Source: Actinomycetes bacterium (GTDB lineage: Bacteria; Actinomycetota; Actinomycetes; S36-B12). From it: 52,369 bases of DNA. This document shows positions 6,841 through 51,070 of this stretch, piece after piece; position 1 is the first letter of the stretch; every line of letters starts with the position of its first letter. The stretch lies in the NCBI GenBank assembly GCA_046085905.1, contig JBJSWO010000042.1:1-52369 (forward strand), in the 5' to 3' direction. The notes below the pieces were generated by a model. The model was given only the letters and a program-made list of their open reading frames with translations, searched no databases and was not told the origin of the DNA. A program made the translations under genes and the position numbers.

Positions 6841-6853
6841 GCCGGTCGCGCTG

Positions 6854-26292: not shown

Positions 26293-26310
26293 GTTGCCTA
26301 CGATAACGGC

Positions 26311-32586: not shown

Positions 32587-32612
32587 TGGTACTCCTGCCA
32601 GATTTGAGCAAC

Positions 32613-33455: not shown

Positions 33456-33498
33456 ATCCGTGAAGCCTCCAACCTACCGTGCATGGCACCATTGACCT

Positions 33499-34332: not shown

Positions 34333-34358
34333 ATAGATCGTTCTGTGAGACTTGTCTT

Positions 34359-35135
34359 GTGACCATTCTTGCCATCGTACAAGCCCGCATGACGTCGACC
34401 CGATTCCCAGGAAAGGTACTCTCGCCTCTTCTGGGCGAGCCGATGATACTGCGCCAGCTAGAAAGGGTTTGCCGCGCAAGACACCTAGAGAGTCTCATTA
34501 TTGCCACCTCAACAGATCCGAGTGATGACCCGCTGGTTGAAGTTCTCGAAACGGCGGGCTACTCGGTTTTCCGTGGGCCCCTAGATGACGTTCTCGCCCG
34601 CTTCATTGGCGCTATCGACGACTTCCAAAGCAGGACCGGCTGCATGGTCGACGTCGTGGTCAGGTTGACAGCGGACTGCCCTTTGGCTTCCCCCGAAGTG
34701 ATCGACGAGGTCATTGATGTATTCCAATCTTCAGCGGCCGACTATGTCTCGAATACGATGACACCGACCTTTCCAGATGGCCTCGATGTGGAGGTAATCA
34801 AGGTCGAAGTGCTCCGTGAAGTTGCATCGGTGGCAATCGATCCTCCTGAGCGCGAGCATGTGACACTGGGTGTGTACAGGAGAAATAGGACGTACGCGAT
34901 CGGCAACTACAGCGATTCACGAAACAACTCCGATCTGCGTTGGACGGTGGACACGCCCGAGGACCTGGCCTTCGTTTCTCAAGTGTACGAAGCTCTATAT
35001 CCGAATGATTGTGAATTTGAATATCAGGATGTCCTGGACTACCTCCAGAATTATCCAGAAAGAAGTAGGACTATTCGGGATGCTGCCAGGAACGCAGCAC
35101 TCAAGGAAATCGACACTGGAGCCATGAATGCCTAG
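34359..35135 (+). CDS. SpsF-type cytidylyltransferase (COG1861-like, CMP-/CDP-sugar forming)
   Basis: MTILAIVQARMTSTRFPGKVLSPLLGEPMILRQLERV is the typical N-terminus of SpsF-like acylneuraminate-cytidylyltransferase-fold proteins. GTG start. Confidence 0.7.
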   Translation: MTILAIVQARMTSTRFPGKVLSPLLGEPMILRQLERVCRARHLESLIIATSTDPSDDPLVEVLETAGYSVFRGPLDDVLARFIGAIDDFQSRTGCMVDVVVRLTADCPLASPEVIDEVIDVFQSSAADYVSNTMTPTFPDGLDVEVIKVEVLREVASVAIDPPEREHVTLGVYRRNRTYAIGNYSDSRNNSDLRWTVDTPEDLAFVSQVYEALYPNDCEFEYQDVLDYLQNYPERSRTIRDAARNAALKEIDTGAMNA

Positions 35136-35183: not shown

Positions 35184-36764
35184 ATGAGATCAGTGTTCGC
35201 GCAAGTTCGAAATCATTGGTTCCCAATCTCAGCGGGGCTCCTCTGCTTTGGATGGGCGCTTCTAGCCTGGCTGACTGTGATTCCAAATCAGGATCTGCTC
35301 GCGGACGGAATTCAGGTGCAAAGCTTGATTCACGATCCGCGCATCGTGCTCTCATTTCCGGGCCAAAAGCACGGAGGCACGCTCGAATACCCATTCAGCG
35401 TCTTGGCCGAGATGGTTTCTCCTGGCAACTATTTTCTCGAGTCATCCATTAGACCGGTTTTTGCTTTCCTGACGGGGTTCTTCGCCGCCTGTCTGTATAG
35501 GACGTATTTCGCGAGAGCCCCTCGCTGGTCCTTCCTCTTGGCTGTAGGAGTAGGACCAACAGTGCTTCAGGGGTTGGCCGGTCCGGTAGAAAATCCAGTA
35601 GGAGTTTGGTGGCTCAATGCTAACTACGACATTGCATGGCTTCTGGTAATCATTGGATTTTGGCTACTCGCCCGCGAAGTGACATCAACTTCTATGCATC
35701 GAGCTCGTGCGCCTCGGGTGTGGATGTTCATCCTCACAGGCTTGGTGGTTGGTCTTGGCTTTTATCAGCAGCCCACCTCCATCCTGCTGATTCTCCCCAT
35801 GGCGGTGCTCTTTCTACTTCGTTTCCGAATAAGCCTCAGACAACTCTCGATACTTCTGCTTGGAGGCCTCATCGGAATCTTTCCCGCGATATTGAGCTAC
35901 TTTCTTGCACCGATCACGACCTGGAATCCCTCTCATTTCCCTGTTTTTCGACCAGACTTGGCTTTGGCTTCTCTTGGCCTTGACGGAGTCCCGAACTACG
36001 CGATCGCGCTCCTCCCGAGCGCTCTAGGATTTGCACCTGCAACCACGATCGCAATCGCGCGTCTCCAAACCATAGTCTCAGCTCTCTTCCTTCTCTCGAT
36101 GTTGATCTTTGCGCTGGTGGGAACCGTTCATGCACTTCGTCGGCGAAGCCGAGTGTCCGAGGGGACTGCTATATCGGTTTGCTGGATTGCAGTGGCCGGA
36201 TCGATCGTCTTTTTCGGCATCTTTGTCGACCCGGTGTGGTTCTATTCGGCCCATCTCTCGATTGTCCTGTGGATGAGCATCGGAATACTTCCTCAACTAA
36301 TCAGGGTTAAATGGATTAGCCGCGCTGCACCTGTGTGCATCTGCCTCGTGGTGGCTCTCAGCACCTTGGCACAGAACGGAACGGGGGTTGTTAACCTGAA
36401 AGAGAGATTTTCGGAAAAGCGTGAGTATCTCTCGACGTTGAATGCGTACGCCTCTGAGATGAGGAAGCTTGACAGTAGGTTTCTGTACGGTTCGTACTAC
36501 GACGTACTGCCGATCGCGTATGGATCCGCTGGCTCGTTGCATCCAGTGTCAAGCACCTATAACCGATTTCCATTGCCTGACTCTGCGCTGACTGGCTTGG
36601 AAGTGGTGAAGGTTGGAATCCGAATTGATCCCACTGACGAGTGGGGGATAACAAGCCTTAGCGAGGTAAGAGAATTGTGTTCAGCTAACGCTAGATTTGT
36701 GAACGGTCAATTGGGAAGATTTCAAGTGTTCGACTGCCCAGTCTCAATACTCGGAAAACGGTAA
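35184..36764 (+). CDS. Polytopic membrane protein (~12 TM) with ~130-aa C-terminal soluble domain; candidate GT-C
   Basis: 526 aa, hydrophobic to ~aa 395, then soluble (NLKERFSEKREYLSTLNAYASEMRK...). Low-GC codon usage. No family recognised. Confidence 0.5.
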   Translation: MRSVFAQVRNHWFPISAGLLCFGWALLAWLTVIPNQDLLADGIQVQSLIHDPRIVLSFPGQKHGGTLEYPFSVLAEMVSPGNYFLESSIRPVFAFLTGFFAACLYRTYFARAPRWSFLLAVGVGPTVLQGLAGPVENPVGVWWLNANYDIAWLLVIIGFWLLAREVTSTSMHRARAPRVWMFILTGLVVGLGFYQQPTSILLILPMAVLFLLRFRISLRQLSILLLGGLIGIFPAILSYFLAPITTWNPSHFPVFRPDLALASLGLDGVPNYAIALLPSALGFAPATTIAIARLQTIVSALFLLSMLIFALVGTVHALRRRSRVSEGTAISVCWIAVAGSIVFFGIFVDPVWFYSAHLSIVLWMSIGILPQLIRVKWISRAAPVCICLVVALSTLAQNGTGVVNLKERFSEKREYLSTLNAYASEMRKLDSRFLYGSYYDVLPIAYGSAGSLHPVSSTYNRFPLPDSALTGLEVVKVGIRIDPTDEWGITSLSEVRELCSANARFVNGQLGRFQVFDCPVSILGKR

Positions 36765-36822
36765 TTCGCGTGCATTCATGCGATGCGCATTTTGAACTTG
36801 GCACATTCCCCAAGTCAAGGAG

Positions 36823-38568
36823 GTGAATGTGAAGGGTAGTTTTCAGTTGAAACGCTTTCTTGCACCATTTTTTCTCGGCGTACTCACAACTGCTTACTTC
36901 TTTCTTCCAGCGCATTACGATCCTGAGCCCTATCACGATGGATCCCAATTTGCAGGTGCGTTAGGCCTAACGGAAGGTCTGGCAACGCACGCTGAGGTCT
37001 TCAGTGCCTACGGTTTCCTAACTACCTGGATCCAGGGTGCTGCAGTTGCCATTCTCGGACCCTCGTTGCTTTCAATCCGCATTTTGACGATTCTTACTAT
37101 CCTCATTGCGGTACTTCTCACGTATTCACTCTTGAACAGTGTGCTTCGAAAGCCTTGGCTGTCAGTTCTGGCGTGCTCCGCCTGGGTTGTCATGTGGCCC
37201 GGAATCTCGGTCAATTGGGGAACCCCTCTACTGCCTTGGCCATCCCTGGTGTACTTAGATTTTCAGCTCGCCTGCGTGGTGTTGATTCTGAAGATCATTG
37301 ATGGCGTTTCGCACCCGCGGATGTACCTCTTCTTTGCGGCCTTCTTTGGTTCGTTAGCGCTTCTAACCCGCATCAATTACGGCCTCTTCTTCTGCCTTTT
37401 CATGTTGTTCGCGTTGGTTGCATTTCGTCGACACATCGGATTGAATCACGAACATTTCGCTCCTGGAATTATTGGATTTCTAAGTCCTCTAATAGTTTCT
37501 GGAGTCGTACTTCTGGCCACAAGCTCCTTGCGAGACTATGTGGAACAGTCAATTACGGGACCATTGAACGGTGCAGTAAAGACTTCAGCGACTGACTTAC
37601 TTTTCCTGGAAAACGCGTACCTACGTGCTTCGCTACCAATCTTCATCGCCCTGGGGTTTGTGTTATGGCTAAGCCGACGGTGGGATTGCGGAAGTCTAGT
37701 CTTTGGAGTGGTCATCGCTGCGGTTACGGGTGTCCTCACCGCGATAAGTACAACCGCGATTTTGGAATCACCTCTTCGAGACGCAATACTCACGCGACTT
37801 ACGTGGGCCCCAGGACTTGACACGCAGGCGATGCAAGCATGTTTTGTGTTTGCGATTGTGACGATTGCTGCAACGCTGGGCATGATCGTGGTATTGCTAG
37901 TTCGAAAGCTTGCATCTTCTCCTCGGTTTCTGAGCAAGAAGTCTTTGCCGTGGAATGGAAGCCCGATGACCTTCTATCTTCTGCTCTTGGCTGCACTCTC
38001 GTCGCTCGTGCAACTCTTTCCTATCGCGGACCCTAACCACTTGTGGTGGGCAGTCCCGCTGCCACTCGCGTTTACCTGTTTCATATTGTGTTACTCAGCA
38101 AGTAGCCGAACCACCGCGGCAGTTGCGTGTGTTCTCTTCGCACCGATGTTGCTAATTGCCCCTTTCACCGGATTTCGGTACTACGAGGTTCCTAGGTCGG
38201 AAGCCAACTCTCCTTCGCTTGCAGGAATGTATGTAAAGACCAGCCTCGCATCCGACTTTGCAAAGGTAGACGATTTTCTTGCATCCTTGGAGCCAAGGAG
38301 CACGAAGTTCCTGTGTCACGGTGGATTGTTTGCAACATGGACGGGTGAATATTTGGCGTCGGACGCCGACTATGTTGATTATGCGTATGGGACCGACCAG
38401 AGGAGTCTGGATCTTGATCCGGACTCCGTGGTTTACTGCGAAGAGAGGGGCGCTGAAGGTGCTGCTGCAGAGTACGCTGAGACGCACGGACTCCGCGTGG
38501 TCGATGAGACAGGTCCGATTTCGTTGTCCTATTTCGCTCAGGTAAACCTGGTGCGTCTCGCTCGTTAG
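36823..38568 (+). CDS. Polytopic membrane protein (~13 TM) with ~140-aa C-terminal soluble domain; candidate GT-C
   Basis: 581 aa. Strong AAGGAGG at 36817-36823, so GTG 36829 may be the true start. First loop PAHYDPEPYHDGSQFAG contains acidic residues, as in GT-C first loops. Lowest GC of the window. Confidence 0.5.
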   Translation: MNVKGSFQLKRFLAPFFLGVLTTAYFFLPAHYDPEPYHDGSQFAGALGLTEGLATHAEVFSAYGFLTTWIQGAAVAILGPSLLSIRILTILTILIAVLLTYSLLNSVLRKPWLSVLACSAWVVMWPGISVNWGTPLLPWPSLVYLDFQLACVVLILKIIDGVSHPRMYLFFAAFFGSLALLTRINYGLFFCLFMLFALVAFRRHIGLNHEHFAPGIIGFLSPLIVSGVVLLATSSLRDYVEQSITGPLNGAVKTSATDLLFLENAYLRASLPIFIALGFVLWLSRRWDCGSLVFGVVIAAVTGVLTAISTTAILESPLRDAILTRLTWAPGLDTQAMQACFVFAIVTIAATLGMIVVLLVRKLASSPRFLSKKSLPWNGSPMTFYLLLLAALSSLVQLFPIADPNHLWWAVPLPLAFTCFILCYSASSRTTAAVACVLFAPMLLIAPFTGFRYYEVPRSEANSPSLAGMYVKTSLASDFAKVDDFLASLEPRSTKFLCHGGLFATWTGEYLASDADYVDYAYGTDQRSLDLDPDSVVYCEERGAEGAAAEYAETHGLRVVDETGPISLSYFAQVNLVRLAR

Positions 38569-38590: not shown

Positions 38591-39442
38591 TTATCGTGCC
38601 TTAGTCCATGTCGCGAAGATGCTGGAACCAAACGGAAGTCGAATCTGTTTCGCGAGAGCTGATTCCGTGGCGAGGATCTTGCGAAGCACTGACTGCACTA
38701 AGGGAGATGGATTGAGTTGCTTCAGCATCTGATTTCGAACTTGCGCTTCGGAGCGACGAATGCCGAGTCGATATGGCACAGTTCGAGACATAAGCGCGGC
38801 GATGGCCAGTGATCCGAACAAGAATTCACTCGTGACCTCTCTAAACCCGGTGTTGAAGGCAAGCCGCGACAGTTTGTCTCTCGTGTAGCGAAGTTCATGC
38901 CCAGCAAACTCATCCTCCTCAGACCAGAGAATCGGTAAGGCCGGCACCGTGATTAGCAGCCGACCGTGGGGAGCAAGAACCCTATGAACTTCCGCTAAGA
39001 GTGTCGCCGGTTCACGCAAGTGCTCCAGCACATCAAACAGGCCAATCGCGTTTAGGCTTCCCGTTGGGAACTTCATTTGTTCCAATGTGCCGGCGAAGGC
39101 GACTAGCCCGTTTTCCCGCATGGAGACGGTTGCCCGCAAATCAGGCTCGACACACAAGACTTCGAATCCCAACTCATTCAGTCGACTGGCATTTGCTCCA
39201 AGACCCGCTCCAATATCCCAAAGGGTTTGATCGCCACTCTCTCGAAGTGCCGTAGCGATACGCTCGGACCGGTGATCGAACCAGTACCCCGAAACGTCGC
39301 CAGCAAGAAGCACATCAAAGCCCATCTCGGGATAGGTTCCGTCGCCTCTTACTGCCGGAACCGAATTGCCCGCCAGTGTGTAAGAGAAGTCCTGCTCTGG
39401 CAGAAGCCAACCTTGCTCGCGAAGGCGATCCAACTCAGTCAC
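38591..39442 (-). CDS. Class I SAM-dependent methyltransferase
   Basis: TLWDIGAGLGANASRLNELGFEVLCVEPD (motif I plus acidic loop), LNAIGLFDVLEHL and LAPHGRLLITVPA. Confidence 0.7.
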   Translation of the reverse strand: MTELDRLREQGWLLPEQDFSYTLAGNSVPAVRGDGTYPEMGFDVLLAGDVSGYWFDHRSERIATALRESGDQTLWDIGAGLGANASRLNELGFEVLCVEPDLRATVSMRENGLVAFAGTLEQMKFPTGSLNAIGLFDVLEHLREPATLLAEVHRVLAPHGRLLITVPALPILWSEEDEFAGHELRYTRDKLSRLAFNTGFREVTSEFLFGSLAIAALMSRTVPYRLGIRRSEAQVRNQMLKQLNPSPLVQSVLRKILATESALAKQIRLPFGSSIFATWTKAR

Positions 39443-39546: not shown

Positions 39547-40536
39547 ATGAGCGAAATGGTTGCGCGAAAAATGCCCCTGTCTGCAGGAACATCGATTGTC
39601 GTGCCTGTTTTCCAAAGTTCAACTTCTCTCGAGATCTTGAAGGAAAGAGTCGTCTCCGCACTTTGTGGCAGGAACTTCGAAGTTTTGCTAGTGGACGACG
39701 GGAGTGATGAGACGACCTGGGCGAGTGTCAAAGCGGTCGTCTCGTCAGACGCGAGGTTTCGCGGCATTAGGTTGTCTAGAAACTTCGGCCAGCACAGCGC
39801 CCTTGTAGCCGGCGTACGCGCTGCCCGATTTGAAACCACGGTCACGATTGATGATGATCTTCAAAATCCTCCTGAAGAGATCACCAAACTTCTTGAGCGA
39901 CTAGATACCAGTCAAGCCGATGTCGTATATGGAGTGTCACCGCTCGTGCGTCAAAGTCTTGGACGAAGAATCGCAGGCAGGATCACTCGCCGAACGCTAA
40001 AGAGCGGTCTCGGAATTGCATCTGCGCCGCAAATGAGTTCATTTCGAGCGTTCCGGACTGAACTCCGCGAAGGATTTGCGGGTGAAATCGGAACCAATGT
40101 CTCCCTTGACGCGTTGTTGACGTGGGCGGCATCCCGCTACGACCACGTCAACGTTCGCCATGATCCTCGCGAATTTGGCTCATCCACTTACAGCATGAAA
40201 AAGCTTGTGCGATTTGCGATCGACAGCATGACTGGGTACAGCACCCTTCCGCTGCAGATAGCAAGCTTGCTGGGGCTAGCGACGGCACTCTTTGGCGTCA
40301 TCGTGCTTCTCTTCGTCACACTGCGCCCCCTGATTCAGGGTGCGTCCATCCCAGGTTTTCCATTTCTAGCATCGACAGTTGCAATCTTTTCAGGGGTTCA
40401 GTTACTAACTCTAGGAGTAATTGGCGAGTATCTGGCGCGCATGCATTTTCGAATTATGAACAAACCCACGTATGTGATTTCAGAGATGGCTATCCCGAAC
40501 CACCAGGCGTATCGCCAGGATTGCACGGATGTGTAG
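39547..40536 (+). CDS. ArnC/GtrB-type GT2: polyprenyl-phosphate sugar transferase with two C-terminal TM helices
   Basis: TSIVVPVFQSSTSLEIL...FEVLLVDDGSDETTW...RGIRLSRNFGQHSALVAGVRAARFETTVTIDDDLQNPPEEI, then TM helices LPLQIASLLGLATALFGVIVLLFV and FLASTVAIFSGVQLLTLGVIGEYLARM. This is the ArnC/GtrB architecture. Start at ATG 39547. Confidence 0.75.
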   Translation: MSEMVARKMPLSAGTSIVVPVFQSSTSLEILKERVVSALCGRNFEVLLVDDGSDETTWASVKAVVSSDARFRGIRLSRNFGQHSALVAGVRAARFETTVTIDDDLQNPPEEITKLLERLDTSQADVVYGVSPLVRQSLGRRIAGRITRRTLKSGLGIASAPQMSSFRAFRTELREGFAGEIGTNVSLDALLTWAASRYDHVNVRHDPREFGSSTYSMKKLVRFAIDSMTGYSTLPLQIASLLGLATALFGVIVLLFVTLRPLIQGASIPGFPFLASTVAIFSGVQLLTLGVIGEYLARMHFRIMNKPTYVISEMAIPNHQAYRQDCTDV

Positions 40537-40542
40537 TTTCAG

Positions 40543-41670
40543 ATGATTCCCTTCAATCGTGCTCAACTCTTCGGCGCAGAACTTGCCCACATGCAGAGAG
40601 CGCTCGCGAATGGCCATATTTCAGGAGGAGGTCCGTTCAATGAGATGGCGGAAGACATTCTGGGCACCTACATGCGGGGGTCACGGGCACTTCTAACAAC
40701 TTCATGCACTCATGCCCTTGAGTTGGCCAGTCGTGTTTTGGAGTTGGGGAAAGGTGACGAGGTGATTGTTCCGGCATTCACTTTCGTCTCCACGGCATCT
40801 GCCTTCGCACTCAGCGGAGCTACGCCCGTCTTCGCCGATGTTTCAGACCGGACATTAGGACTCACCCTTGACGCCATTAAGGGGTCTTTTACGCCGAGAA
40901 CTAGGGCCGTTTGTGTCGTTCATTACGCGGGCGTACCAACGGAGCTTGAAGAGATAAGTGCATGGTGCCAAGACCAGGGAGTCACCCTTATCGAAGACAA
41001 TGCGCATGGACTCGGATCGACTCTTAACGGACGACCGCTAGGAACCTTCGGGAGTCTCTCCACGTTGAGTTTCCATGAGACAAAAAACATCACGTGCGGC
41101 GAGGGTGGCGCGTTGGTCGTAAACCACAAACCATTGATTCCCCAGGCTGAGATCCTTCGCGAGAAGGGTACTGACCGAAGCCAGTTCATCCGCGGCCAAA
41201 TAGATAAGTACACCTGGCAAGCCGCGGGGTCTAGTTGGGTGCTATCAGACATGCTTGCCGCTTTCTTGGTCGGTCAACTTGAGATGTTCGAAGACATTCA
41301 AATGACTCGAAAGTCGATATGGAATTTTTACGAAGCTAGTCTGGGCACGTGGGCTCAAGAGAACGGAGTGCGTACGCCGACGGTGCCTGATCAGGTTGAT
41401 CACTCAGCTCACATGTATTTCCTGAGACTCCCTGATCACGAATCGCGGTCTCGATTTATCGATCACATGTCTTCGCGTGGGGTCATGACGGTGTTTCACT
41501 ACCAGGCACTGAATGCGTCGCCGATGGGGATCAAGCTTGGAGGGATTTCGGGCTCATGCCCGGTGGCCGAAGAACTGAGCGGGACCCTGGTACGGCTGCC
41601 GCTGTTCGCGACATTGACACCATTTGAGCAGCAGAGTGTGGTGCATGCCGCCATTGATTTCAAGGTCTAA
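40543..41670 (+). CDS. wecE: WecE-like NDP-4-keto-6-deoxyhexose 4-aminotransferase (DegT/DnrJ/EryC1 family)
   Basis: MIPFNRAQLFGAELAHMQRAL...ISGGGPF, SFHETKNITCGEGGAL (PLP lysine), REKGTDRSQFIRGQIDKYTW, AHMYFLRL, VFHY and LVRLPLF are collinear with E. coli WecE as I remember it. 6-nt gap to the upstream gene. Confidence 0.85.
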   Translation: MIPFNRAQLFGAELAHMQRALANGHISGGGPFNEMAEDILGTYMRGSRALLTTSCTHALELASRVLELGKGDEVIVPAFTFVSTASAFALSGATPVFADVSDRTLGLTLDAIKGSFTPRTRAVCVVHYAGVPTELEEISAWCQDQGVTLIEDNAHGLGSTLNGRPLGTFGSLSTLSFHETKNITCGEGGALVVNHKPLIPQAEILREKGTDRSQFIRGQIDKYTWQAAGSSWVLSDMLAAFLVGQLEMFEDIQMTRKSIWNFYEASLGTWAQENGVRTPTVPDQVDHSAHMYFLRLPDHESRSRFIDHMSSRGVMTVFHYQALNASPMGIKLGGISGSCPVAEELSGTLVRLPLFATLTPFEQQSVVHAAIDFKV

Positions 41671-41676
41671 TTCGAC

Positions 41677-42327
41677 ATGAATTTGGCAGATTACATCGCC
41701 GCCGAGAATCACTCGGTTGAGGCTGCTCGGGCTGATGAATTCGCGAGCAACCCGGAAATCGGGATTCGAATGATTCGAATCTCGGAGTGGATTCTTAAGG
41801 AACCTGACCTTCTAGAAATTTTCGTCACTTGGCGCCGACACTCTCGAGAAAAGTTCTTTGCTCGATTTGCTGAATCTAGACCAAGCATGGAGAGATACCT
41901 GAGGGGAGTATGCCAAGATCCATTTCGCGTTCTCTTCCTGATTGAGGACCAGAACCTGCTGCCTTTAGGGCACATCGGGCTAAAGGCTTTGGACTCCAGT
42001 ACCCCTGAGATTGATGCCGTGATGGTGAATCCGAATGCTCGGGCAAAAGGAGTTATGTCTTGGGCTCTAGAGCAATGCGTTCTAAGCCTAGGGTCGCTTG
42101 CGCATGTGTCCAATGTGAAGCTTGACGTACTTTCAAACAATGAACAAGCCATCTCCTTGTACCGCAAATGTGGATTTGTACACGCCTCCAGTCGGAGTCT
42201 GCGGTTAGTCCAAGGTGAGGGTTTCGAAGTTCTCACGCCCTGCGATCCAGAGGACAGCGACATCAGTATCCGAGCCGTGACAATGACGAGGGAGTTAGAA
42301 CATGCTTCCAAGCAGGTCGTCGATTGA
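41677..42327 (+). CDS. GNAT-family N-acetyltransferase (WecD / PseH-like role)
   Basis: 216 aa. GHIGLKALDSSTPEIDAVMVNPNARAKGVMSWALEQCV...NEQAISLYRKCGFV is a GNAT acetyl-CoA motif A region. 6-nt gap after the aminotransferase. Confidence 0.6.
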   Translation: MNLADYIAAENHSVEAARADEFASNPEIGIRMIRISEWILKEPDLLEIFVTWRRHSREKFFARFAESRPSMERYLRGVCQDPFRVLFLIEDQNLLPLGHIGLKALDSSTPEIDAVMVNPNARAKGVMSWALEQCVLSLGSLAHVSNVKLDVLSNNEQAISLYRKCGFVHASSRSLRLVQGEGFEVLTPCDPEDSDISIRAVTMTRELEHASKQVVD

Positions 42328-42501
42328 TTCCGGTTGTCTCCGTTGTGAGAAATGCGGAGCGCTCCGAGCTAGACGGCCTACAGGGCCTTTTCCGAAAGCG
42401 CCAATTTAGCTGGAAATCTCTCTAGGCGACGAATCCCGCCTTCATCTCCAGACGAGGTCGTCAAGGCATCACCCATTCTTCGGCACTCGCCACCTGTAGA
42501 A

Positions 42502-44760
42502 TTGACGATGATGTCAGTTGTTGGGAATCTCGAGCGCGTCGCCAAGAGCCGACGTTGGCCTCGAGCGACACTTCCACTTGTCGTGGCGACCTTCTCCGCC
42601 ATCTTTCTCGTTGCCAATGGCGTGACAATTCGGACTGTGGTTGGCGTCATGCTGGCCGTGAGTTTCCAGGCCCTTGGCGGTGCACTCGTCTGGCGAAAGC
42701 TTCGGCCTTCGGCTGACCTCCTCGAGAGTTCCGGGATGGGCATCGCCCTGGGCACCGGGCTCTCCGTGATCTCGGGGCTGCTCATTCGCGTTCTCTTCGA
42801 TGCCGCATGGGGCTGGCTGGTTCCATCCGTGGCGGTGTTGATCTCATGGCTCGCAGGTCGGCTGAGGGCGAAGCGTGCTTCCCGTGCCTCGCGAACGCCG
42901 ACTCTCGACAGGGCAACTCTGATCGCGCTCGTCGTCGGAGCCGTGGTCGGAGTGACCTCCCTGGTCGGGAATATCCGGCACTACCCGCTCGTGTGGCGGG
43001 GAACTTGGAGCGGGTATCACACGGACATGCCGTTCTTCGAAGCGTTGTCGACCTCCCTCGCCAAGTTCGGCCCCCTTGACAGCATCTTTCTTCCGGGCGC
43101 AGAAGTCAGATACCACTGGCTCGTCTACGCATGGTCAGGGCAGGTGAGCCAGGCTGTCGGAGCCGAGGGCTTCGTCATGCTCACCCGAGGGCTGCAAGTT
43201 ACCGCGGTTCTTGCGAGCTCCCTGTTGGTCGTCTCGTGGACGAGACGCCTCACCCGACGAATGCTCACTCCCACCCTCGCGGTATTGCTTCTGCTCACCG
43301 GTGGATACATCGGTGTCACCTACGGGGGCATCCTCAATTTCGATTCCCCATCGCAGTCCATGGGTGTCGCATGGCTCCTGGCTGCCTCATTGGCCTTGAT
43401 GGAATTCGTCCGATCCTCCGAAGAGAGATCGCGGCGGGCGCAGGTGGCATGGTTGAGCGTGATCGCCGCCCTCGGATTCATAACCACTGGCGGAAAGATC
43501 AGCGCGGCAGCACCGTTACTTGTCGGTGCGGTATTGATGACCGGCTTCGGCTTGCTCATGCGTGCCGATTGGCGGCGGCGTGCCCTCCAGGGCACCGTGG
43601 CGCTCTGTTGCGGCTCACTGCTTGCCTACGTGCTGATCATCTCGGGAGCGAATGGCGGGGGCGGACTCGCGCTTGGCGCTCTCATCGATCGCACGTCGAG
43701 TCAGCAGGGCATTAACCCGATCGAGGGCACCCTGGGCATCATTCTTGGCACGTGCATCCTCGTGCTGGCCGTCGCGATGCGCTGGTCAGGACTCTTTTGG
43801 CTCGCAACGCGAGGTGAGAGTCGCAGCCGCCCCGATGTGATCTTCGCCCTCGGCATGGCGGTGACAGGCCTTGGCGCGATCATCCTGTTCAACGGATTCA
43901 ATGAGATTTGGTTCGCAGCAGCGGCGAGCGCGCCGCTGGCGGTATTCACGGCAGAGGGCTTCGAGTCGGCCCTTGACCGACTGACGGAGGTTGGTCGCAG
44001 ATCGCTCCGAAGCGTGCTGGTCGCAGCGATCGTGGCGGCAGTCGTGATCTTCGCGATCGTATGGATCGTGTGGGCCACCGGACCTTCGGGTGGCAGTTAC
44101 TGGCGCGGCACCTGGCGGTGGTCGGGTCCGATCGTCGCCTTTCTGCTCGGAATCGCCGCAGGGTGGACGATCTCCCGATTCGCGGGTTCTCCGTACTCAC
44201 GAACAAGGGTGCTGGCCGCAACGACGCTTGTTCTCGTCCTCGTCGCCCTGCCGAGCCGATTGCTCGGTATCGGCACGGGTCAGGTGGGCGTACCCGCTGG
44301 ATTGAGACCCGATCTCTTCAGCATGGGAATCGCCCCGACTGTTCGTGGCCATGACGAGCTGTTGATCAGCGACATCCCCTGGGGCTACATGGAAGCCGCA
44401 GCATGGCTTCGTGGTCACGCGAGTGCAACTGATGTCGTGGCCACGAATCTGACGTTTGGCCCGCTAATTCCTGCGATTACCGGCCTTCAGACCTTCGTCT
44501 CGGGAATCCAGTACCAAGCGCCCTACGGTCGGCCTGCGGCAGCGGCAGAGGTGCTCAAGCGCGACGATGAGATCTGGAAATTCGTCAATTCCCCTTCAGC
44601 CGAGACGCTCGCTCCGTTGTGCGCCTCGGGGGTGACGTGGATTTGGGTCAACCCAGAGGCCGCCTCTCTGACCTCATGGCTGCCGTATGCCACTGTCGCA
44701 TTCACGAACGCTGACGCGACGATTCTGGGCCTCGCCCCCGAGAACTGCCCAGCCAGTTGA
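42502..44760 (+). CDS. Large polytopic membrane protein (~16 TM, 752 aa) with ~170-aa C-terminal soluble domain; ArnT/YfhO-like candidate GT-C
   Basis: Hydrophobic to ~aa 585. Loop YHTDMPFFEALSTSLAKFGPLDSIFLPGAEVRYHWLVYAWSG. C-terminal soluble domain (LISDIPWGYMEAAAWLRGH...). TTG 42502 or ATG 42508 start. Confidence 0.55.
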   Translation: MTMMSVVGNLERVAKSRRWPRATLPLVVATFSAIFLVANGVTIRTVVGVMLAVSFQALGGALVWRKLRPSADLLESSGMGIALGTGLSVISGLLIRVLFDAAWGWLVPSVAVLISWLAGRLRAKRASRASRTPTLDRATLIALVVGAVVGVTSLVGNIRHYPLVWRGTWSGYHTDMPFFEALSTSLAKFGPLDSIFLPGAEVRYHWLVYAWSGQVSQAVGAEGFVMLTRGLQVTAVLASSLLVVSWTRRLTRRMLTPTLAVLLLLTGGYIGVTYGGILNFDSPSQSMGVAWLLAASLALMEFVRSSEERSRRAQVAWLSVIAALGFITTGGKISAAAPLLVGAVLMTGFGLLMRADWRRRALQGTVALCCGSLLAYVLIISGANGGGGLALGALIDRTSSQQGINPIEGTLGIILGTCILVLAVAMRWSGLFWLATRGESRSRPDVIFALGMAVTGLGAIILFNGFNEIWFAAAASAPLAVFTAEGFESALDRLTEVGRRSLRSVLVAAIVAAVVIFAIVWIVWATGPSGGSYWRGTWRWSGPIVAFLLGIAAGWTISRFAGSPYSRTRVLAATTLVLVLVALPSRLLGIGTGQVGVPAGLRPDLFSMGIAPTVRGHDELLISDIPWGYMEAAAWLRGHASATDVVATNLTFGPLIPAITGLQTFVSGIQYQAPYGRPAAAAEVLKRDDEIWKFVNSPSAETLAPLCASGVTWIWVNPEAASLTSWLPYATVAFTNADATILGLAPENCPAS

Positions 44761-44772: not shown

Positions 44773-45972
44773 CTAATTCATGACACGCGTTGCTGCTGAG
44801 TGAGACTGAATCGACTTCCAGAGCACGACCGCCAGGCCGGGAGCGATGAGCAGCAGCATGAGGTCAGAGAGGTACTCAGCGGCACCAATGAAGGTGGAGT
44901 AGCTGAGGAGCATCTGCAGCAGGACTGCAATCGCTGCGAGACGCGCGAGTGAGGTGCCTACGCGGGCCAGACCAGAAATAAGTGGGATAAGAGTGATGAG
45001 GCGGTAGTCGAAGCTCGGGCCGATCATGTAGGCGACCAGGAACGAGCCGCCACCGGCCAGCACCATCGCTGTCGCCACCAAATTGGCAGAGAGTTGATCC
45101 GCAAGAGTCGACAGTCGCAAGTGATCGCGCTTTCCTCGGCTGACCATCAACATCGCGATGGTGACCGCGGCGAAGAATCCGATGCCCAGCGCCTTCGCGA
45201 GCGCAGCCTGCCCCGGCAGCCCGGCATGGTTCAGTGCGAGAAGTGGAAGGACGGCGGAGCCGAATGAGGCGCCGTCGAGGGCCGGGGTCCGGGTGTAGAT
45301 GATCGGTAGGTCACGCACGACGAGGAGAAGACCGACGGTGGTAGTGATTGCGTAGGTGATGAGTGTCGAAGTCTTGCGACGGGTCGCCGTCAGGAGCATC
45401 AAGATACTGCCGACTGGGAATAACTTCAAGAAGGTTGCGAGGCCGAGCACGACGGCAGAAGACCGCTGCCGACTCGTCACGAAGAGCAGAATCGAGACCG
45501 CGGTGAGCGTGAAGATCACGAGATCAATATTCCCGCGTTCGAAGGCCAGGAGAACGGGTGGTGAAACAGCGGCTAGGGACATGAGGAGTGTCGGGAACCA
45601 CGAATTTCCGCTTGTCAGGCTTAGGAAGGTCAGTGCGCTCACGGCGAGTGCAAAGAGAATGATGAAGAAGAAAGCAACAGCGGAAGCCGAATCCGCGGTG
45701 ATGCCGAGAATCGCGAAGAGCCTTGCCCAGAGCGAGGGGTAGTTGTAGATCGCCATGCCCGGATTGCACGCGGTGCTAGCGGTTGACCAATCCGACTCGT
45801 GCTGGGCGCACTCGGAGGCCAGGAGGATCACCCTCAGATCACCGAAATGCGCGCCGGTGGTGGGAACTCCAAGGCTCGTCCATAGCGCCGAGCGCACGAG
45901 AATCGCACCTAGAGCGAGGGCGAGGACTCCGGGAATGGCGGCCAGCCCTACGCGTCGAGCGTGAATCTCCAT
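44773..45972 (-). CDS. Polytopic membrane protein, DUF2029 / GT87-like glycosyltransferase
   Basis: 399 aa, ~11 TM. FERGNIDLVIFTL and the loop-1 segment MAIYNYPSLWARLF resemble polyprenyl-P-mannose-dependent GT87 enzymes. Confidence 0.45.
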   Translation of the reverse strand: MEIHARRVGLAAIPGVLALALGAILVRSALWTSLGVPTTGAHFGDLRVILLASECAQHESDWSTASTACNPGMAIYNYPSLWARLFAILGITADSASAVAFFFIILFALAVSALTFLSLTSGNSWFPTLLMSLAAVSPPVLLAFERGNIDLVIFTLTAVSILLFVTSRQRSSAVVLGLATFLKLFPVGSILMLLTATRRKTSTLITYAITTTVGLLLVVRDLPIIYTRTPALDGASFGSAVLPLLALNHAGLPGQAALAKALGIGFFAAVTIAMLMVSRGKRDHLRLSTLADQLSANLVATAMVLAGGGSFLVAYMIGPSFDYRLITLIPLISGLARVGTSLARLAAIAVLLQMLLSYSTFIGAAEYLSDLMLLLIAPGLAVVLWKSIQSHSAATRVMN

Positions 45973-46028
45973 CTGCCTGTCTCCCCCGTAGCCCGCTCGG
46001 AAATATATCGGCCTGACATGATTCGGGA

Positions 46029-47192
46029 GTGCGACGCACTTGGAAGCTTCCGGTGCTCCTTCTGGGAGTGTGGGTGCTCACGCGCGCACTGAGCGTGCTC
46101 TCCTTGGTGAAGCTGCCCTGGGTGCCCTTCGACGTGGTGATCTACTCGCAGTGGGCTGACGGCCTGCGAGCCGGTTCCTTCCCCATGGGAGATGAGCGCT
46201 GGCAGTACCCGGATTTCATGGCCGTCGTGCTTCTGGTCCCGAGTTACTTGCATGTCTCTTACATCACTAGTTTCGTGGCAATCTCACTTTGCGCGGATCT
46301 GGCGATCATGCTCGCCGTAATTGCGGCCTGGCGCAGGAGGAATGGCCAGGTGATGGGCCCATGGGTCTGGGCTCTTGCCGGAATCTGGATCGGCTCAGTG
46401 CTTCTCGTGCGCCTTGACCTCTTCGTGACGCTCTTCGCTGTGCTGGCTCTGGTGACGATGGGCCGGCCGGTGCTCTCCGCGGCCTTCTCGGCCCTCGGTA
46501 CGGGGCTGAAGGTGTGGCCTGCGGTGGGCCTTCTAGGGCTCCGCAGAGGTCGGCTGCTCCGCGCATTCGGCATGTTCGTCGGCGTGCTCGTGCTCGCAGA
46601 GCTCCTGGTTCGGCTCATGCTTCCGTCGGGGGATTCATTCCTGGGTGCCCAGGCTGGTAGAGGCCTGCATGCGGAGTCGCTCGGGGTCTTCCCCTATCTG
46701 ATTCGCGGCATCGGGGGGTATCCGCCGACCTTCAGCGAGACTCACGGCACCCTCGAGCTGGTGAGCCCCTGGGCCAGCACCATCGGCCTCCTTCTCACAT
46801 TGGTAGGCCTGTTTGTCATTGCCGTGCTTGCCTGGCTGAACTGGTCAGGCCGGCTTGCCGGACTACTGCCCGCCGACCTCGTGACGATCTGTGTCTTGGT
46901 ACTCGTCGTGACGGGACGGGTCTTCTCGCCGCAGTTCTACATCTGGCTCGCCGGCCTGTGCGCAGTCGCCCTCATCAATCGACGAACCATCCTGCGCCTG
47001 CCAACGCTGCTCATCATCGCCTCTGCGGTGTGCGCGATGTACGTATACCCCTTTGACAATGGCTGGCGCGTTGGCGAGACAGATGCGCTGATTGCGCAAC
47101 TAATCAGGCTCGTGCTCGTCGTAGCGGCGCTCATCGTTGCCCTTGCTCGGGTGAATCGAATCCGAGTCTCAGCCCCGACTGGAGCGCGTTAG
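46029..47192 (+). CDS. Polytopic membrane protein, DUF2029 / GT87-like glycosyltransferase
   Basis: 387 aa, ~10 TM. The N-terminal loop FDVVIYSQWADGLRAGSFPMGDERWQYPDF is typical of the DUF2029 family (D..Y......G..PY......YPP pattern). Confidence 0.5.
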   Translation: MRRTWKLPVLLLGVWVLTRALSVLSLVKLPWVPFDVVIYSQWADGLRAGSFPMGDERWQYPDFMAVVLLVPSYLHVSYITSFVAISLCADLAIMLAVIAAWRRRNGQVMGPWVWALAGIWIGSVLLVRLDLFVTLFAVLALVTMGRPVLSAAFSALGTGLKVWPAVGLLGLRRGRLLRAFGMFVGVLVLAELLVRLMLPSGDSFLGAQAGRGLHAESLGVFPYLIRGIGGYPPTFSETHGTLELVSPWASTIGLLLTLVGLFVIAVLAWLNWSGRLAGLLPADLVTICVLVLVVTGRVFSPQFYIWLAGLCAVALINRRTILRLPTLLIIASAVCAMYVYPFDNGWRVGETDALIAQLIRLVLVVAALIVALARVNRIRVSAPTGAR

Positions 47193-48307
47193 GCGATCCA
47201 CTGCGCATTCACGTACTTGATGGTGATGAAGGCGAGTGCCGGAATGGCGATGGCGAAGTAAGTCCACTTGAACCATCGATGCTTCGTAGCCCAGAGTCCC
47301 ACGATGATCCAGATAGGGAAGAGGATCAAGGTGGCACGCGGAGTCGACTGGAAGAACTCTCCTGTCATGAATGACCAGAGAGTCAAGAATACGTAAGCGG
47401 TCTCCGCCCACCAGCGCTTGAACAGCAGCACGACGCCAAGCCCCAGGGCGATGAAGGTATTCGCGAACTCGGCAACAAATCTCGATGCCGAGAAGCCGGT
47501 CGATCCCGCGTCCATGGCCATGCGGATCGTGTTGATCGACGAAGTCACCGGGTCAGTGAATTGCCGGTTCCAGGTCTGTGTCTGGATATCGAACCAGTGC
47601 GTCCAACTGCCGGTGATCGCGTGCAGATAGGCGAAGTAGCCGAACACCACGAGGAAGGGGAGAAGCAGTGCGAGACCCTTGAGCCATGGCCTGTTCTTCG
47701 TGAGCAGGAACATCAGGATCAGCGCTACGCCGAGGAAGAGCGCATTGCTGCGTGTCGTCGCAGCGAATCCGGCGAGGATGCCGGCGGTGATCCACTTACC
47801 TCGGCGGGCGTAGAGCCAGGCCCAGAATGAGAACGCCGCGAAGAGCGCCTCGGTGTAAGGAGCGAAGAGGAACACGGCCATCGGGGCGAACATCCAGATC
47901 GCCACGGTGAGGTCGCCCTTGGCTCCGAAGCTCTCTGCCAGTCGAGCCAGTGCGAAGCCGGCGAAGAGGGAGGCGATCAGGGAGACGAGGAGCCCCGATG
48001 CGCTGGCGGATAGCCCGACATGCGCGCCAACCCACATCAGGCCGGGCAGGGCGGGGAAGAAGGCGGTGTTGTACGTGCATCGATCAGAGCCGAGATAGCC
48101 ATACTGCGCCACGCTTTCGTAGCAGTAGGTATCGAACTGGTGCCATGAGGTCGTGAATCCGGCGAGGGGCCCCAGAGCACTCACGGTTGCAGCGGCAGCC
48201 AGCAAGCCGAAGATCGCGATGTAGACGTGTGATCCGAGCCAGACGAGCGCGATATTGCGCGCACTGGATCTCTGCTGTGTCACAACCCCGGCGGTGAGCT
48301 GGCTCAA
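47189..48307 (-). CDS. Polytopic membrane glycosyltransferase, PIG-V / GT-C-like; paralogue of 11634..12785
   Basis: WHQFDTYCYESVAQYGY...YNTAFFPALPGLMW, LVSLIASLFAGFALARL, PYTEALFAAFSFWAW, FGYFAYLHAITGSW and DPVTSSINT align residue by residue with the 11634..12785 product. Confidence 0.6.
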   Translation of the reverse strand: MSQLTAGVVTQQRSSARNIALVWLGSHVYIAIFGLLAAAATVSALGPLAGFTTSWHQFDTYCYESVAQYGYLGSDRCTYNTAFFPALPGLMWVGAHVGLSASASGLLVSLIASLFAGFALARLAESFGAKGDLTVAIWMFAPMAVFLFAPYTEALFAAFSFWAWLYARRGKWITAGILAGFAATTRSNALFLGVALILMFLLTKNRPWLKGLALLLPFLVVFGYFAYLHAITGSWTHWFDIQTQTWNRQFTDPVTSSINTIRMAMDAGSTGFSASRFVAEFANTFIALGLGVVLLFKRWWAETAYVFLTLWSFMTGEFFQSTPRATLILFPIWIIVGLWATKHRWFKWTYFAIAIPALAFITIKYVNAQWIA

Positions 48308-48419
48308 TTCGATTCCCCTCGTGCCTCATGGTCCTGGGAAGGCCCTGCTGAGACTGATTCAGCAGACGCGGGAGCGCGCGAGCGCACTCCTGCCTTTGCC
48401 TAGATCGTATTGTTGGCTC

Positions 48420-49439
48420 GTGAGATACCTGGTAACCGGACACACGGGATTCAAGGGAGCCTGGCTCGCCATGCTCCTGAATCGTGCCGGTCACGAGGTG
48501 GTCGGAATCGCCCTTGACCCGGTACCCGGGTCACTCTTCGAGCAGGCACATGTGGGTGAACTGTTTGCTGCTGATGTGCGCTGCGATATTCGCGATGCGG
48601 CGACCACTCGGACTGCGATCAGGGATCTCTCACCGGATGTCGTCATCCACATGGCCGCTCAGCCGCTCGTGCGTGCGTCCTACTCCGATCCCCGTTGGAC
48701 CATGGAGACCAACGTCATGGGCACGCTCTCAGTGCTCGAGGGTGTATCTGAGACGCCGTCAGTTAAGGGGCTCGTGGCCGTCACGACAGACAAGGTCTAT
48801 CGAAACGTGGGCCAGGTTGAGGGCTATGTCGAAAGCGATGCTCTCGGAGGCCAAGATCCGTACTCGGCTTCCAAGGCCATGTCGGACATCCTGATCACCT
48901 CCTGGACTGACTCCTTCGGGCCCTGCCCGACCACCATCGCTCGCGCGGGCAACGTGATCGGCGGCGGTGACGTGTCGGCTGATCGCCTCTTCCCGGATCT
49001 CATCGATTCGTTCGCGGCAGGGCGTCCCGCGAAACTCCGCTACCCCGAGGCCGTGAGGCCCTGGCAGCACGTATTGGACTGCTTGGCAGGTTATGTGGCG
49101 CTTGCCGAGGCTACCGTTGCAGGGAACGCGACGGGGGCCTGGAATTTCGGCCCCGACCCCGATGCCTTTCGCACCGTGGGCGAAGCGGCCACGGTCGCTG
49201 CTGCCTACTGGGGCGAAGGTGCATCTTGGACTTCGCAGCCTGGCAAGCATCTTCATGAAGCCGCGATGCTCACCCTGGATTCCTCCCGTGCCCACCGATG
49301 GCTGCACTGGCACGATGCACTTGATTTCGACTCCGCGGTTCGCTGGACGATTGAATGGGCAAGGCAGGTGCGCGCCGGCGGCTCGGCCCGGAATGTCTGT
49401 TTCGAGCAGATCGATGCACACGCGGCGCGTGGTCGTTGA
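48420..49439 (+). CDS. rfbG: CDP-glucose 4,6-dehydratase
   Basis: YLVTGHTGFKGAWLAMLLNRAGHEVVGIALDP...DIRDAATTRTAIRDLSPDVVIHMAAQPLVRASYSDPRWTMETNVMGTLSVLE and DPYSASKA are RfbG/DdhB hallmarks. Start set to GTG 48420. The listed 48255 start would overlap the divergent gene. Confidence 0.85.
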   Translation: MRYLVTGHTGFKGAWLAMLLNRAGHEVVGIALDPVPGSLFEQAHVGELFAADVRCDIRDAATTRTAIRDLSPDVVIHMAAQPLVRASYSDPRWTMETNVMGTLSVLEGVSETPSVKGLVAVTTDKVYRNVGQVEGYVESDALGGQDPYSASKAMSDILITSWTDSFGPCPTTIARAGNVIGGGDVSADRLFPDLIDSFAAGRPAKLRYPEAVRPWQHVLDCLAGYVALAEATVAGNATGAWNFGPDPDAFRTVGEAATVAAAYWGEGASWTSQPGKHLHEAAMLTLDSSRAHRWLHWHDALDFDSAVRWTIEWARQVRAGGSARNVCFEQIDAHAARGR

Positions 49440-49530
49440 CCGGCCTGGGATTCCGGGCCGCAGCTTCGCGCAGGCATGAACTTTCCTGATTCACTTTGAT
49501 CAAACTTCAAGACAGTTGGGGACGGAAGCA

Positions 49531-50256: not shown

Positions 50257-50304
50257 TTCGGCACCGTTTCTCACGCTGTCCGTGAGTCTCAGTAGGCTGA
50301 TTAC

Positions 50305-51066: not shown

Positions 51067-51070
51067 CGCG

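Follow-up and report, generated by a model that had tools for sequence, protein, structure and literature searches.

The stretch of DNA considered here, referred to as the window, is the entire 52,369-bp contig of a metagenome-assembled genome (MAG) listed at NCBI as 'Actinomycetes bacterium'. It carries three tightly spaced genes for a family 2 glycosyltransferase (GT2) of ArnC/GtrB architecture, a WecE-family sugar 4-aminotransferase and a GNAT N-acetyltransferase, followed by a gene for a large polytopic membrane protein (Table 1). An earlier note on this DNA had interpreted these genes by analogy with the arn operon, i.e., as a lipid-carrier route for a 4-acetamido-4,6-dideoxy sugar. Comparative genomics backs the Arn-like interpretation, in which the sugar, the lipid product and the acceptor are predictions, and the cassette is a widespread cross-phylum module rather than something peculiar to this MAG.

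Results

Gene content and setting of the cassette

The three genes are separated by gaps of 6 nt each (TAG-tttcag-ATG and TAA-ttcgac-ATG), and both the coordinates of the open reading frames (ORFs) and the two spacers proved exact when the earlier note was checked. Matches in Pfam, NCBIfam and the PDB agree on a GT2, a WecE-like 4-aminotransferase and a GNAT enzyme, and the polytopic protein of 752 aa that was said to follow has about 12 transmembrane (TM) segments, counted here and below from hydropathy. The GC content is 0.49-0.58 across about 31.1-42.4 kb compared with 0.60-0.65 to either side, which delineates a low-GC island. The trio sits at the end of this low-GC stretch and the gene for the 752-aa protein already has the host-like GC content ascribed to it. 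A tRNA scan and promoter and terminator scans of the window defined no island or operon boundaries, and no member of the GT2 subfamily described below was found in the plasmid collection searched.

Two other contigs with homologues of the 752-aa protein have 3' genes that are syntenic with the window, in the order GT87-like gene, second membrane-protein gene, methyltransferase, nucleotidyltransferase and RmlC-like gene, while the 5' cassette is wholly different and lacks the GT2 module. In one of these (L088) the second membrane-protein gene is 86% identical to that at 47189-48307. The conserved 3' side together with the differing 5' side indicates that the gene for the 752-aa protein belongs to a conserved backbone and borders a swappable slot, and it is this slot, between conserved backbone genes, that the low-GC block occupies. 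In a JGI contig with a 752-aa homologue a bacillosamine-like PglD/DegT/Bac_transf set occupies the slot together with PseB, an aldo-keto reductase and CTP_transf_3.

A separate subfamily of predicted polyprenyl-phosphate glycosyltransferases

The GT2 matches the Pfam family Glycos_transf_2 (PF00535; E 1.7e-24), i.e., an N-terminal GT-A domain is present, and both of its TM segments are C-terminal (residues 241-259 and 271-289). It aligns end-to-end with the NCBIfam models of ArnC (8-311 of 316) and PgfS, and with the solved structures of ArnC (residues 10-322; E 1.7e-42) and GtrB (E 1.2e-36). The metal/nucleotide loop reads DDDLQNPPEEI, compared with DADLQNPPEEI in ArnC; D102-D103-D104-L-Q-N aligns with 100-DADLQN-105 of ArnC and is invariant throughout the subfamily. 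Counterparts of ArnC residues D48, N77, R205, and S210 were identified by residue-level alignment, and the subfamily alignment has the DXD motif, N79, R140, R208, and S213 invariant. In ArnC, R128 and R137 in a juxtamembrane segment contact undecaprenyl phosphate (10.1101/2025.01.29.634835), and the conserved R140 falls in the same segment. By homology, the GT2 would transfer a sugar from a nucleotide sugar to polyprenyl phosphate.

Family membership was judged by NCBIfam equivalog cut-offs (in bits), Pfam E-values and PDB profile matches. The GT2 remained below the cut-offs for ArnC (NF007986; 159 vs. 529), PgfS (NF047588; 135 vs. 500), and PpgS (NF058614; 31 vs. 370), and is 33% identical to ArnC of Salmonella enterica and 28% identical to GtrB. 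In the PDB search similarity decreased from ArnC over GtrB to dolichyl-phosphate mannose synthase (DPMS). The earlier note had stated that grouping of the GT2 with glucose- or mannose-specific enzymes would speak against its reading; the GT2 does not group with these, and its similarity scores place it nearest ArnC.

A scan of GTDB, with one genome per species, for the two signature motifs of the subfamily (DDDLQNPP and HFR[IV]MxKPT) gave at least 593 confirmed relatives, the best 80 of which were compared in detail and are 45-61% identical to the GT2 of the window. They are distributed over at least 10 phyla, with members in Actinomycetota, Chloroflexota, Dormibacterota, Acidobacteriota, Myxococcota, Burkholderiales, Planctomycetota, Verrucomicrobiota, Gemmatimonadota, Bacteroidota, and others. 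Homologues in the wider sense number thousands. Because identity within the group is well above that to ArnC and GtrB, and because the equivalog cut-offs were not reached, the GT2 belongs to a separate orthologous group in the polyprenyl-phosphate glycosyltransferase superfamily, the members of which are named generic GT2 or ArnC in existing sources.

Conservation of the cassette between phyla

For a census of neighbouring genes, flanking ORFs of 85 loci were clustered, hidden Markov models (HMMs) were built from the clusters, and neighbours were counted in the 56 GTDB loci among the best 80 for which 3 kb or more of sequence was available on either side. The distance limit was 5 kb for the aminotransferase, N-acyltransferase and methyltransferase and 10 kb for RmlB. 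A WecE-like aminotransferase was found near the GT2 in 44 of the 56 loci, on the same strand and downstream in 43 of these, and an N-acyltransferase in 42 (WecD-like in 37, a formyltransferase in three and the GNAT type of the window in two). Both enzymes were present in 36 loci and at least one of them in 50. RmlB was a neighbour in 14 loci (a representative scores 409 bits vs. a cut-off of 365), and homologues of the methyltransferase that is divergently oriented to the GT2 in the window were found in 23; this enzyme may methylate the sugar. Only three loci were without any aminotransferase, acyltransferase, RmlB or methyltransferase gene.

The cassette is often a compact operon of three to four genes with few further glycosyltransferases around. 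The trio was met again in dozens of unrelated genomes; such adjacency over so many phyla is not a matter of chance and argues for a shared pathway. Lack of co-conservation of the GT2 with the aminotransferase and GNAT had been named in the earlier note as another finding that would speak against its reading, and co-conservation turned out to be strong across at least 10 phyla. Two cultured bacteria, Roseateles saccharophilus DSM 654 (L018, with the GT2 at 1501-2499) and Ramlibacter pallidus HM2 (L050), have the complete module, and a relative is present in a Thauera MAG (L080).

Amination and acylation enzymes

The aminotransferase belongs to the Pfam family DegT_DnrJ_EryC1 (E 1.2e-82) and its translation has the SFHETK lysine motif. 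It passes the NCBIfam model for dTDP-4-amino-4,6-dideoxygalactose transaminase (NF008687; 462 bits vs. 375, over residues 1-373 of 375) and falls slightly short on TIGR02379 (406 bits vs. 435). Its PDB matches were WecE (4piw; E 2e-95), ArnB (about 1e-42), and PseC (3e-27). An enzyme of the WecE type would use dTDP-4-keto-6-deoxy-D-glucose and give the galacto product; both the nucleotide and the C4 stereochemistry are predictions here, and the RmlB genes near 14 of the 56 GT2 loci support a dTDP donor indirectly.

The acyltransferases are more diverse. The GNAT of the window matches Acetyltransf_1 (E 3.4e-11) and gave no match to the WecD models NF008212 and TIGR02382 or to WecD in the PDB; the profile of its type instead matched amine acetyltransferases of the AAC(6'), SpeG, and PseH types. 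The distribution of this type is limited to a Nanopelagicales-like group (the window, L002, L004, L005, L008, and L012), where the orthologues adjoin the GT2. Elsewhere the usual acyltransferase is WecD-like and full-length on the model for dTDP-Fuc4N (4-amino-4,6-dideoxygalactose) acyltransferase, and a profile of 10 such proteins had TDP-fucosamine acetyltransferase of E. coli as its best PDB match (E 3.4e-26; next GNAT 6.5e-15). At four of the 80 loci, of which three belong to the census set, the GT2 has an Fmt/ArnA-N-type formyltransferase gene no more than 5 kb away and the WecD-type gene is missing, a replacement that parallels the ArnA formyl chemistry of the Arn pathway. Cassettes with GT2, Fmt/ArnA-N-like and WecE-like genes were seen in L013, L057, L077, and L086, and also in L070. 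They imply a lipid-carried N-formyl 4-amino-4,6-dideoxyhexose, as far as gene content can predict it. The N-acylation slot thus appears to be filled by interchangeable enzymes while the GT2 and the aminotransferase remain orthologous.

Large membrane proteins next to the cassette

The earlier note had proposed the 752-aa protein as the membrane glycosyltransferase that uses the lipid-linked sugar, with the reservation that the cognate GT-C enzyme might be one of the island proteins encoded within 35184-38568. This reservation was justified in that the 581-aa protein of the island is an ArnT/PMT_2-like GT-C by its predicted fold; it does not follow that the user is simply an island protein, as a GT-C fold is predicted for the 752-aa protein also. 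Sequence and profile searches of the PDB with the three polytopic families of the locus gave nothing, and only the fold search was informative, in which AlphaFold (AF2) models were compared with the PDB by Foldseek. For the 752-aa model, with a pLDDT of 90.3, the 19 best matches are all GT-C proteins (ArnT, DPY19, STT3, AftA, and PglB). For the 581-aa protein (pLDDT 91, pTM 0.92) the top 15 matches are all GT-C, including AglB, ArnT (TM-score 0.45-0.49), DPY19, EmbB, ALG12, Pmt4, and PglB. The protein itself has no Pfam match, and PMT_2 (PF13231) was detected in nine of 39 database homologues. Invariant residues follow TM1 immediately in the 581-aa family (D33-P-E-P-Y-H-D39-G) and lie after the fifth helix in the 752-aa family (H173/D175). 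The position of D33 and D39 is consistent with the acidic residue(s) that GT-C enzymes of the ArnT/PMT_2 kind conserve in their first extracytoplasmic loop.

The 581-aa protein is paired with a 526-aa protein of a rare family, which has 51 representatives among 1.84 billion proteins and matches no Pfam family. A weak profile link between the two families (82-84% probability) suggests that the 526-aa protein is possibly GT-C-like as well. The gene pair adjoins a subfamily GT2 and a WecE-like aminotransferase in L004, L005, L012, L089, and L090. Synteny of the 526-aa gene extends to L091 (9906-11946), where the pair and PseB are kept, the DegT aminotransferase and GT2 belonging to other subfamilies (GT2 27% identical). 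An ATP-grasp enzyme is encoded downstream in L091 where the acetyltransferase would be.

Proteins of 741-765 aa that directly adjoin the GT2 subfamily at eight loci of Dormibacterota are homologous to the 752-aa family (hhalign 99.7%, E 8e-26, 689 columns), and this makes the partner GT-C ambiguous; the user of the lipid-linked sugar in the window may be the 581-aa protein, the 752-aa protein or both. Some 752-aa homologues (P0199, P0208, P0220, and others) are fusions of 961-969 aa with an N-terminal GT2. The 752-aa protein was also considered as a partner of GT2b (30648-31490), but this found no support, as BLAST relates the fused GT2 neither to GT2b nor to the GT2 of the island.

In general, the large polytopic neighbour differs by lineage. 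It is PMT_2-like in L089 and L090 and belongs to a family without Pfam match (famB) in Roseateles, Ramlibacter, and two Nanopelagicales loci; the Roseateles and Ramlibacter genes lie at L018:4493-6655 and L050:7264-9177 (membrane proteins of 637/720 aa). Among 66 polytopic proteins encoded beside the GT2, Pfam detected PMT_2 in seven, GT87 in three and nothing in most, and all-against-all phmmer divided them into many small families. Different GT-C families beside the same GT2 subfamily in different phyla is the pattern expected if a single lipid-linked donor is shared by GT-C enzymes that vary with the lineage.

Possible sources of the nucleotide sugar and a possible flippase

Both PseB on the low-GC island and RmlA elsewhere in the window pass their equivalog cut-offs, and the NCBIfam scan agrees with the earlier note that the window has no RmlB. 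The short-chain dehydrogenase/reductase (SDR) encoded at 14844-15791 was considered for this role (250 bits on our own RmlB HMM) and rejected as a generic UXS/LegB-like SDR, since it scores 130 bits vs. 365 on the NCBIfam model. PseB is conserved by the 526/581-aa pair, being 93% identical in L004 and 77-78% identical in L089-L091. A joint swap of RmlB to PseB and of WecD to the GNAT type of the window, which would have pointed to a substrate switch, was likewise rejected because L089 and L090 pair PseB with a WecD-like enzyme.

A CDP-hexose branch at 48255-51616 comprises a CDP-glucose 4,6-dehydratase (370 bits vs. 278), a methyltransferase, an RmlC-like epimerase and a glucose-1-phosphate cytidylyltransferase-like protein (278 bits vs. 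a cut-off of 300). It is a possible third source of a 4-keto-6-deoxy sugar and shows synteny to the host backbone of L088. The region 4839-10492 encodes a GDP-mannose 4,6-dehydratase, a GMD-like reductase and a 1212-aa FkbM methyltransferase + GT4 protein, which is reminiscent of chain-terminating/polymerising enzymes of ABC-transporter-dependent glycans.

The only flippase candidate near the cassette is an MsbA/PglK-like fused ABC exporter, homologues of which (46-93% identity) occur near the GT2 in L001, L002, L004, L006, L008, and L089-L091. In L004 and L089-L091 the exporter gene and that of GT2b again form a pair on the upstream side of the cassette. That this exporter might flip the lipid-linked sugar is speculative.

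Other glycan genes of the window

A further trio at 11634-13937 encodes a PIG-V-like GT-C, a short GT2 and a small DUF2304 membrane protein, an arrangement that we take to resemble that of mycobacterial PpgS/Rv3632, and has the appearance of another lipid-carrier glycosylation system, distinct from the cassette. The sole small multi-TM ORF of the window (13362-13934) is located here, far from the island. The regions 44773-48307 and 15800-17545 encode two GT87-like, one weakly PMT_2-like and one LIC_10190-family membrane protein. This unusual density of GT-C-type and related membrane proteins suggests that much of the glycan is built outside the membrane. Within the island, 32613-35135 forms a sub-module of a weakly methyltransferase-like 280-aa protein, an aldo-keto reductase and an SpsF/KdsB-like cytidylyltransferase, the latter two of which recur with PseB in a contig without the GT2 cassette; the sub-module is absent from L089-L091. 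A DUF4910/DUF2172/HTH_47 protein is encoded on the reverse strand at 24964-26562, inside the glycan locus.

Table 1. Coordinates of the genes of the cassette and of related genes in the window.
Feature	Coordinates	Strand	Remarks
GT2 of ArnC/GtrB architecture, polyprenyl-phosphate glycosyltransferase by homology	39547-40536	+	329 aa; family and structure matches, 2 C-terminal TM
WecE-family sugar 4-aminotransferase, pyridoxal-phosphate dependent	40543-41670	+	375 aa; NF008687, PDB WecE 4piw
GNAT N-acetyltransferase, non-WecD, in the N-acylation slot	41677-42327	+	216 aa; Acetyltransf_1, PDB profile search
GT-C-fold membrane glycosyltransferase, candidate user of the lipid-linked sugar	42502-44760	+	752 aa (NCBI: 750 aa); backbone gene with host GC
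ArnT/PMT_2-like GT-C glycosyltransferase, candidate user of the lipid-linked sugar	36823-38568	+	581 aa; in low-GC island
Polytopic membrane protein of a rare family	35184-36764	+	526 aa, 9 TM; always paired with the 581-aa GT-C
Class I S-adenosylmethionine-dependent methyltransferase, divergent to the GT2	38591-39442	-	Pfam Methyltransf_11/23
PseB-type UDP-GlcNAc 4,6-dehydratase (inverting)	31600-32643	-	TIGR03589, 480 bits vs. 408
RmlA glucose-1-phosphate thymidylyltransferase	3002-3937	-	TIGR01207, 450 bits vs. 361
MsbA/PglK-like fused ABC exporter, flippase candidate	28722-30647	+	Homology
PIG-V-like GT-C	11634-12785
Short GT2	12844-13569		241 aa
DUF2304 small membrane protein	13479-13937

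Discussion

The cassette probably encodes a pathway of the Arn kind, in which an N-acetylated 4-amino-4,6-dideoxyhexose is loaded onto a lipid carrier, as judged from homology, gene order and predicted folds. The pathway would start from a nucleotide-4-keto-6-deoxyhexose, most likely dTDP-4-keto-6-deoxy-D-glucose provided by RmlA and an RmlB encoded outside the window. The WecE-family enzyme would aminate this sugar at C4, the GNAT would acetylate the resulting amine, and the GT2 would, at the cytoplasmic face of the membrane, place the sugar on polyprenyl phosphate to give polyprenyl-P-Fuc4NAc or polyprenyl-P-Qui4NAc, i.e., the 4-acetamido-4,6-dideoxy derivatives of galactose or glucose. After flipping, one or more GT-C enzymes, the 752-aa protein encoded downstream and/or the 581-aa protein encoded upstream, would move the sugar to an envelope glycan or protein. 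We infer the substrate, lipid product, flipping and acceptor from the genes.

Several observations weigh against this scheme. No RmlB above cut-off is present in the window, and in the actinobacterial clade PseB is conserved by the 526/581-aa pair with no RmlB nearby, so that a UDP-2-acetamido sugar is possible. As the GNAT of the window is non-WecD, its substrate can be read from its gene position only. No flippase of the GtrA, ArnE/F, GtcA or MATE type is encoded at the cassette, and clustering of the 85 loci gave no conserved small membrane protein. The 752-aa protein also has homologues with no cassette nearby. Finally, three Dormibacterota loci (L021, L028, and L034) have the GT2 followed by RmlB and a methyltransferase, with no aminotransferase within 10 kb; this arrangement implies that the subfamily may also carry non-amino, possibly O-methylated, 6-deoxyhexoses.

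A rival reading concerns the identity of the sugar. Within the same lipid-carrier logic it might be a 2,4-diacetamido-2,4,6-trideoxyhexose, made by PseB, the WecE-like enzyme acting as PseC and the GNAT as PseH, with the GT2 taking the UDP-sugar. All genes needed for this lie inside the window, PseB is above its equivalog cut-off and on the same low-GC island, and in L004, L089, and L090 it is syntenic (77-93% identity) with the 526/581-aa pair by the GT2-aminotransferase cassette, again with no RmlB near. The profile of the window-type GNAT matches C. jejuni PseH (E 1.8e-5), over the longest stretch, and leaves WecD unmatched. The aminotransferase, on the other hand, scores 323 bits to WecE vs. 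99 to PseC, and PseB does not track the acyltransferase switch, as L089 and L090 combine it with a WecD-like acetyltransferase. Beyond this clade RmlB, and at no locus PseB, accompanies the GT2 subfamily. Linkage to PseB does not go along with greater divergence of the GT2 and aminotransferase from their counterparts linked to WecD/RmlB (52-58% vs. 53-54% identity), and in L091 PseB and the 526/581-aa pair persist by another GT2 and another DegT enzyme. We therefore regard a diacetamido sugar as unlikely, although it deserves to be kept in mind. For the GT2 subfamily overall, the comparisons point to a dTDP-4-keto-6-deoxyglucose source and a Fuc4NAc or Qui4NAc product, and a dTDP route would be roughly twice as likely as a UDP route.

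Other explanations depart further from the proposed pathway. The aminotransferase and GNAT could make a soluble donor for cytoplasmic glycosyltransferases, with the GT2 being an unrelated neighbour that transfers glucose, mannose or N-acetylglucosamine to polyprenyl phosphate; the window is full of other GT2 and GT4 genes able to use such a donor, and Fuc4NAc is added in this manner, by cytoplasmic WecF, in E. coli. We find this improbable given the same-strand adjacency of this particular subfamily with WecE-like and acyltransferase genes over at least 10 phyla, the 6-nt gaps in the window, and the scores of the GT2, which are below the PgfS (GtrB-like) and PpgS cut-offs and far below DPMS-type similarity. 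It is very improbable that the island is a degenerate or partial pathway of the pseudaminic/legionaminic type. PseB, the DegT aminotransferase, the GNAT and an SpsF/KdsB-like (CTP_transf_3) cytidylyltransferase (34359-35135) do share the island, but neither a NeuB/PseI synthase nor PseG was found in the window ORFs scanned by Pfam or NCBIfam, which makes such a pathway unlikely, and the aminotransferase is of the WecE type. The cytidylyltransferase and the aldo-keto reductase are moreover absent from L089-L091, which otherwise keep the arrangement, and occur with PseB where there is no GT2 cassette. A true Arn pathway that forms undecaprenyl-P-linked 4-formamido- or 4-acetamido-4-deoxyarabinose (Ara4FN or Ara4NAc) can practically be set aside. 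ArnC is the nearest characterised relative of the GT2 and ArnB the second-nearest family to the aminotransferase, but with 159 bits vs. a cut-off of 529 the GT2 is not an ArnC orthologue, the aminotransferase reaches 178 bits vs. 631 on the ArnB model, no ArnA-type decarboxylase lies beside the cassette and the host is an actinomycete MAG, with no lipid A.

The proposed lipid-carrier pathway for a 4-acetamido-4,6-dideoxyhexose resembles the Arn pathway in the order of its chemistry (4-amination, N-acylation, transfer to polyprenyl phosphate by a GT2, and transfer by a GT-C at the outer face), in the similarity of the GT2 to ArnC including the DxDLQNPPEEI loop, in the presence of ArnT among the top matches of both GT-C candidates, and in the existence of formyltransferase variants. 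It differs in that the sugar would be a 6-deoxyhexose rather than a pentose and the donor likely a dTDP- rather than a UDP-sugar, in having a WecE-type instead of an ArnB-type aminotransferase and, in the window, acetyl instead of formyl as the acyl group, and in the lack of the deacylase ArnD and of ArnE/F. With the synthesis of Fuc4NAc for enterobacterial common antigen (ECA; RmlA/RmlB, WecE, WecD, and WecF) it shares the WecE-family enzyme, a WecD-like enzyme in most lineages and RmlB in 14 of the 56 loci. In ECA synthesis cytoplasmic WecF uses dTDP-Fuc4NAc directly on a disaccharide linked to undecaprenyl diphosphate, whereas in the cassette a polyprenyl-phosphate GT2 stands where WecF stands, and the acetyltransferase of the window is not WecD.

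The combination of a polyprenyl-P-sugar synthase with lineage-variable GT-C enzymes is also known from three-component systems (GtrA/GtrB/GtrV; CsbB/GtcA/YfhO; PgfS; and pentofuranose systems, PMC11127046). Unlike these, no gene for a flippase of the GtrA, MATE or SMR type was found in the cassette, and the donor sugar depends on an amination and acylation branch of its own, the genes of which share the operon. Mycobacterial PpgS (Rv3631)/Rv3632/Rv3779, likewise an actinobacterial lipid-carrier route, brings an N-acetylated amino sugar (there N-acetylgalactosamine, GalNAc) to a wall polymer via a GT-C. The earlier note had held that the cassette copies PpgS/Rv3779; the likeness in lipid-carrier and GT-C logic stands, but the GT2 of the island scores 31 bits on the PpgS model vs. 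a cut-off of 370, and the closer PpgS/Rv3632-like arrangement in the window is the other trio (11634-13937).

A polyprenyl-phosphate donor of this sugar class was held by the earlier note to be undescribed. Our full-text literature search, with incomplete coverage so that absence is unproven, brought up neither a polyprenyl-phosphate donor of Fuc4NAc or Qui4NAc nor the cassette, and no case of WecE/WecD chemistry combined with a polyprenyl-phosphate GT2 and a GT-C. To our knowledge the polyprenyl-monophosphate donors known are few (glucose, N-acetylglucosamine, galactose, mannose, GalNAc, galacturonic acid, Ara4FN, galactosamine/glucosamine, and pentofuranoses), and use of a dTDP-sugar by a polyprenyl-phosphate glycosyltransferase would be the first one shown. 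If the proposed pathway is correct, its 4-acylamido-4,6-dideoxyhexose donor would be a new chemical class and probably also a new nucleotide class (dTDP). It is tempting to extend this to a hitherto unrecognised pathway present in many phyla for polyprenyl-P sugars of the Fuc4NAc/Qui4NAc type (N-acetyl, N-formyl, and possibly O-methyl), with a dTDP-using GT2 subfamily and several unrelated GT-C families, some of which lack a Pfam model, a proposal that we put forward tentatively and hold to be somewhat short of probable.

A genome survey placed the Fuc4NAc pathway in Gammaproteobacteria only (PMC7725333). If the interpretation holds, 4-acylamido-4,6-dideoxyhexoses would reach beyond that class to Actinomycetota, Chloroflexota, Dormibacterota, Acidobacteriota, Myxococcota, and others. 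It would also explain what a conserved GT2 subfamily does in the 593 or more species-level genomes that carry it, and give a role to at least three large membrane-protein families with little or no Pfam coverage, two of which are GT-C by predicted fold. Cultured Roseateles and Ramlibacter carry the complete module, which makes these predictions directly testable there. For uncultured freshwater actinobacteria, the location of the cassette in a low-GC swappable slot bears on variation of the cell surface, where envelope glycans are a plausible target of phages and grazers.

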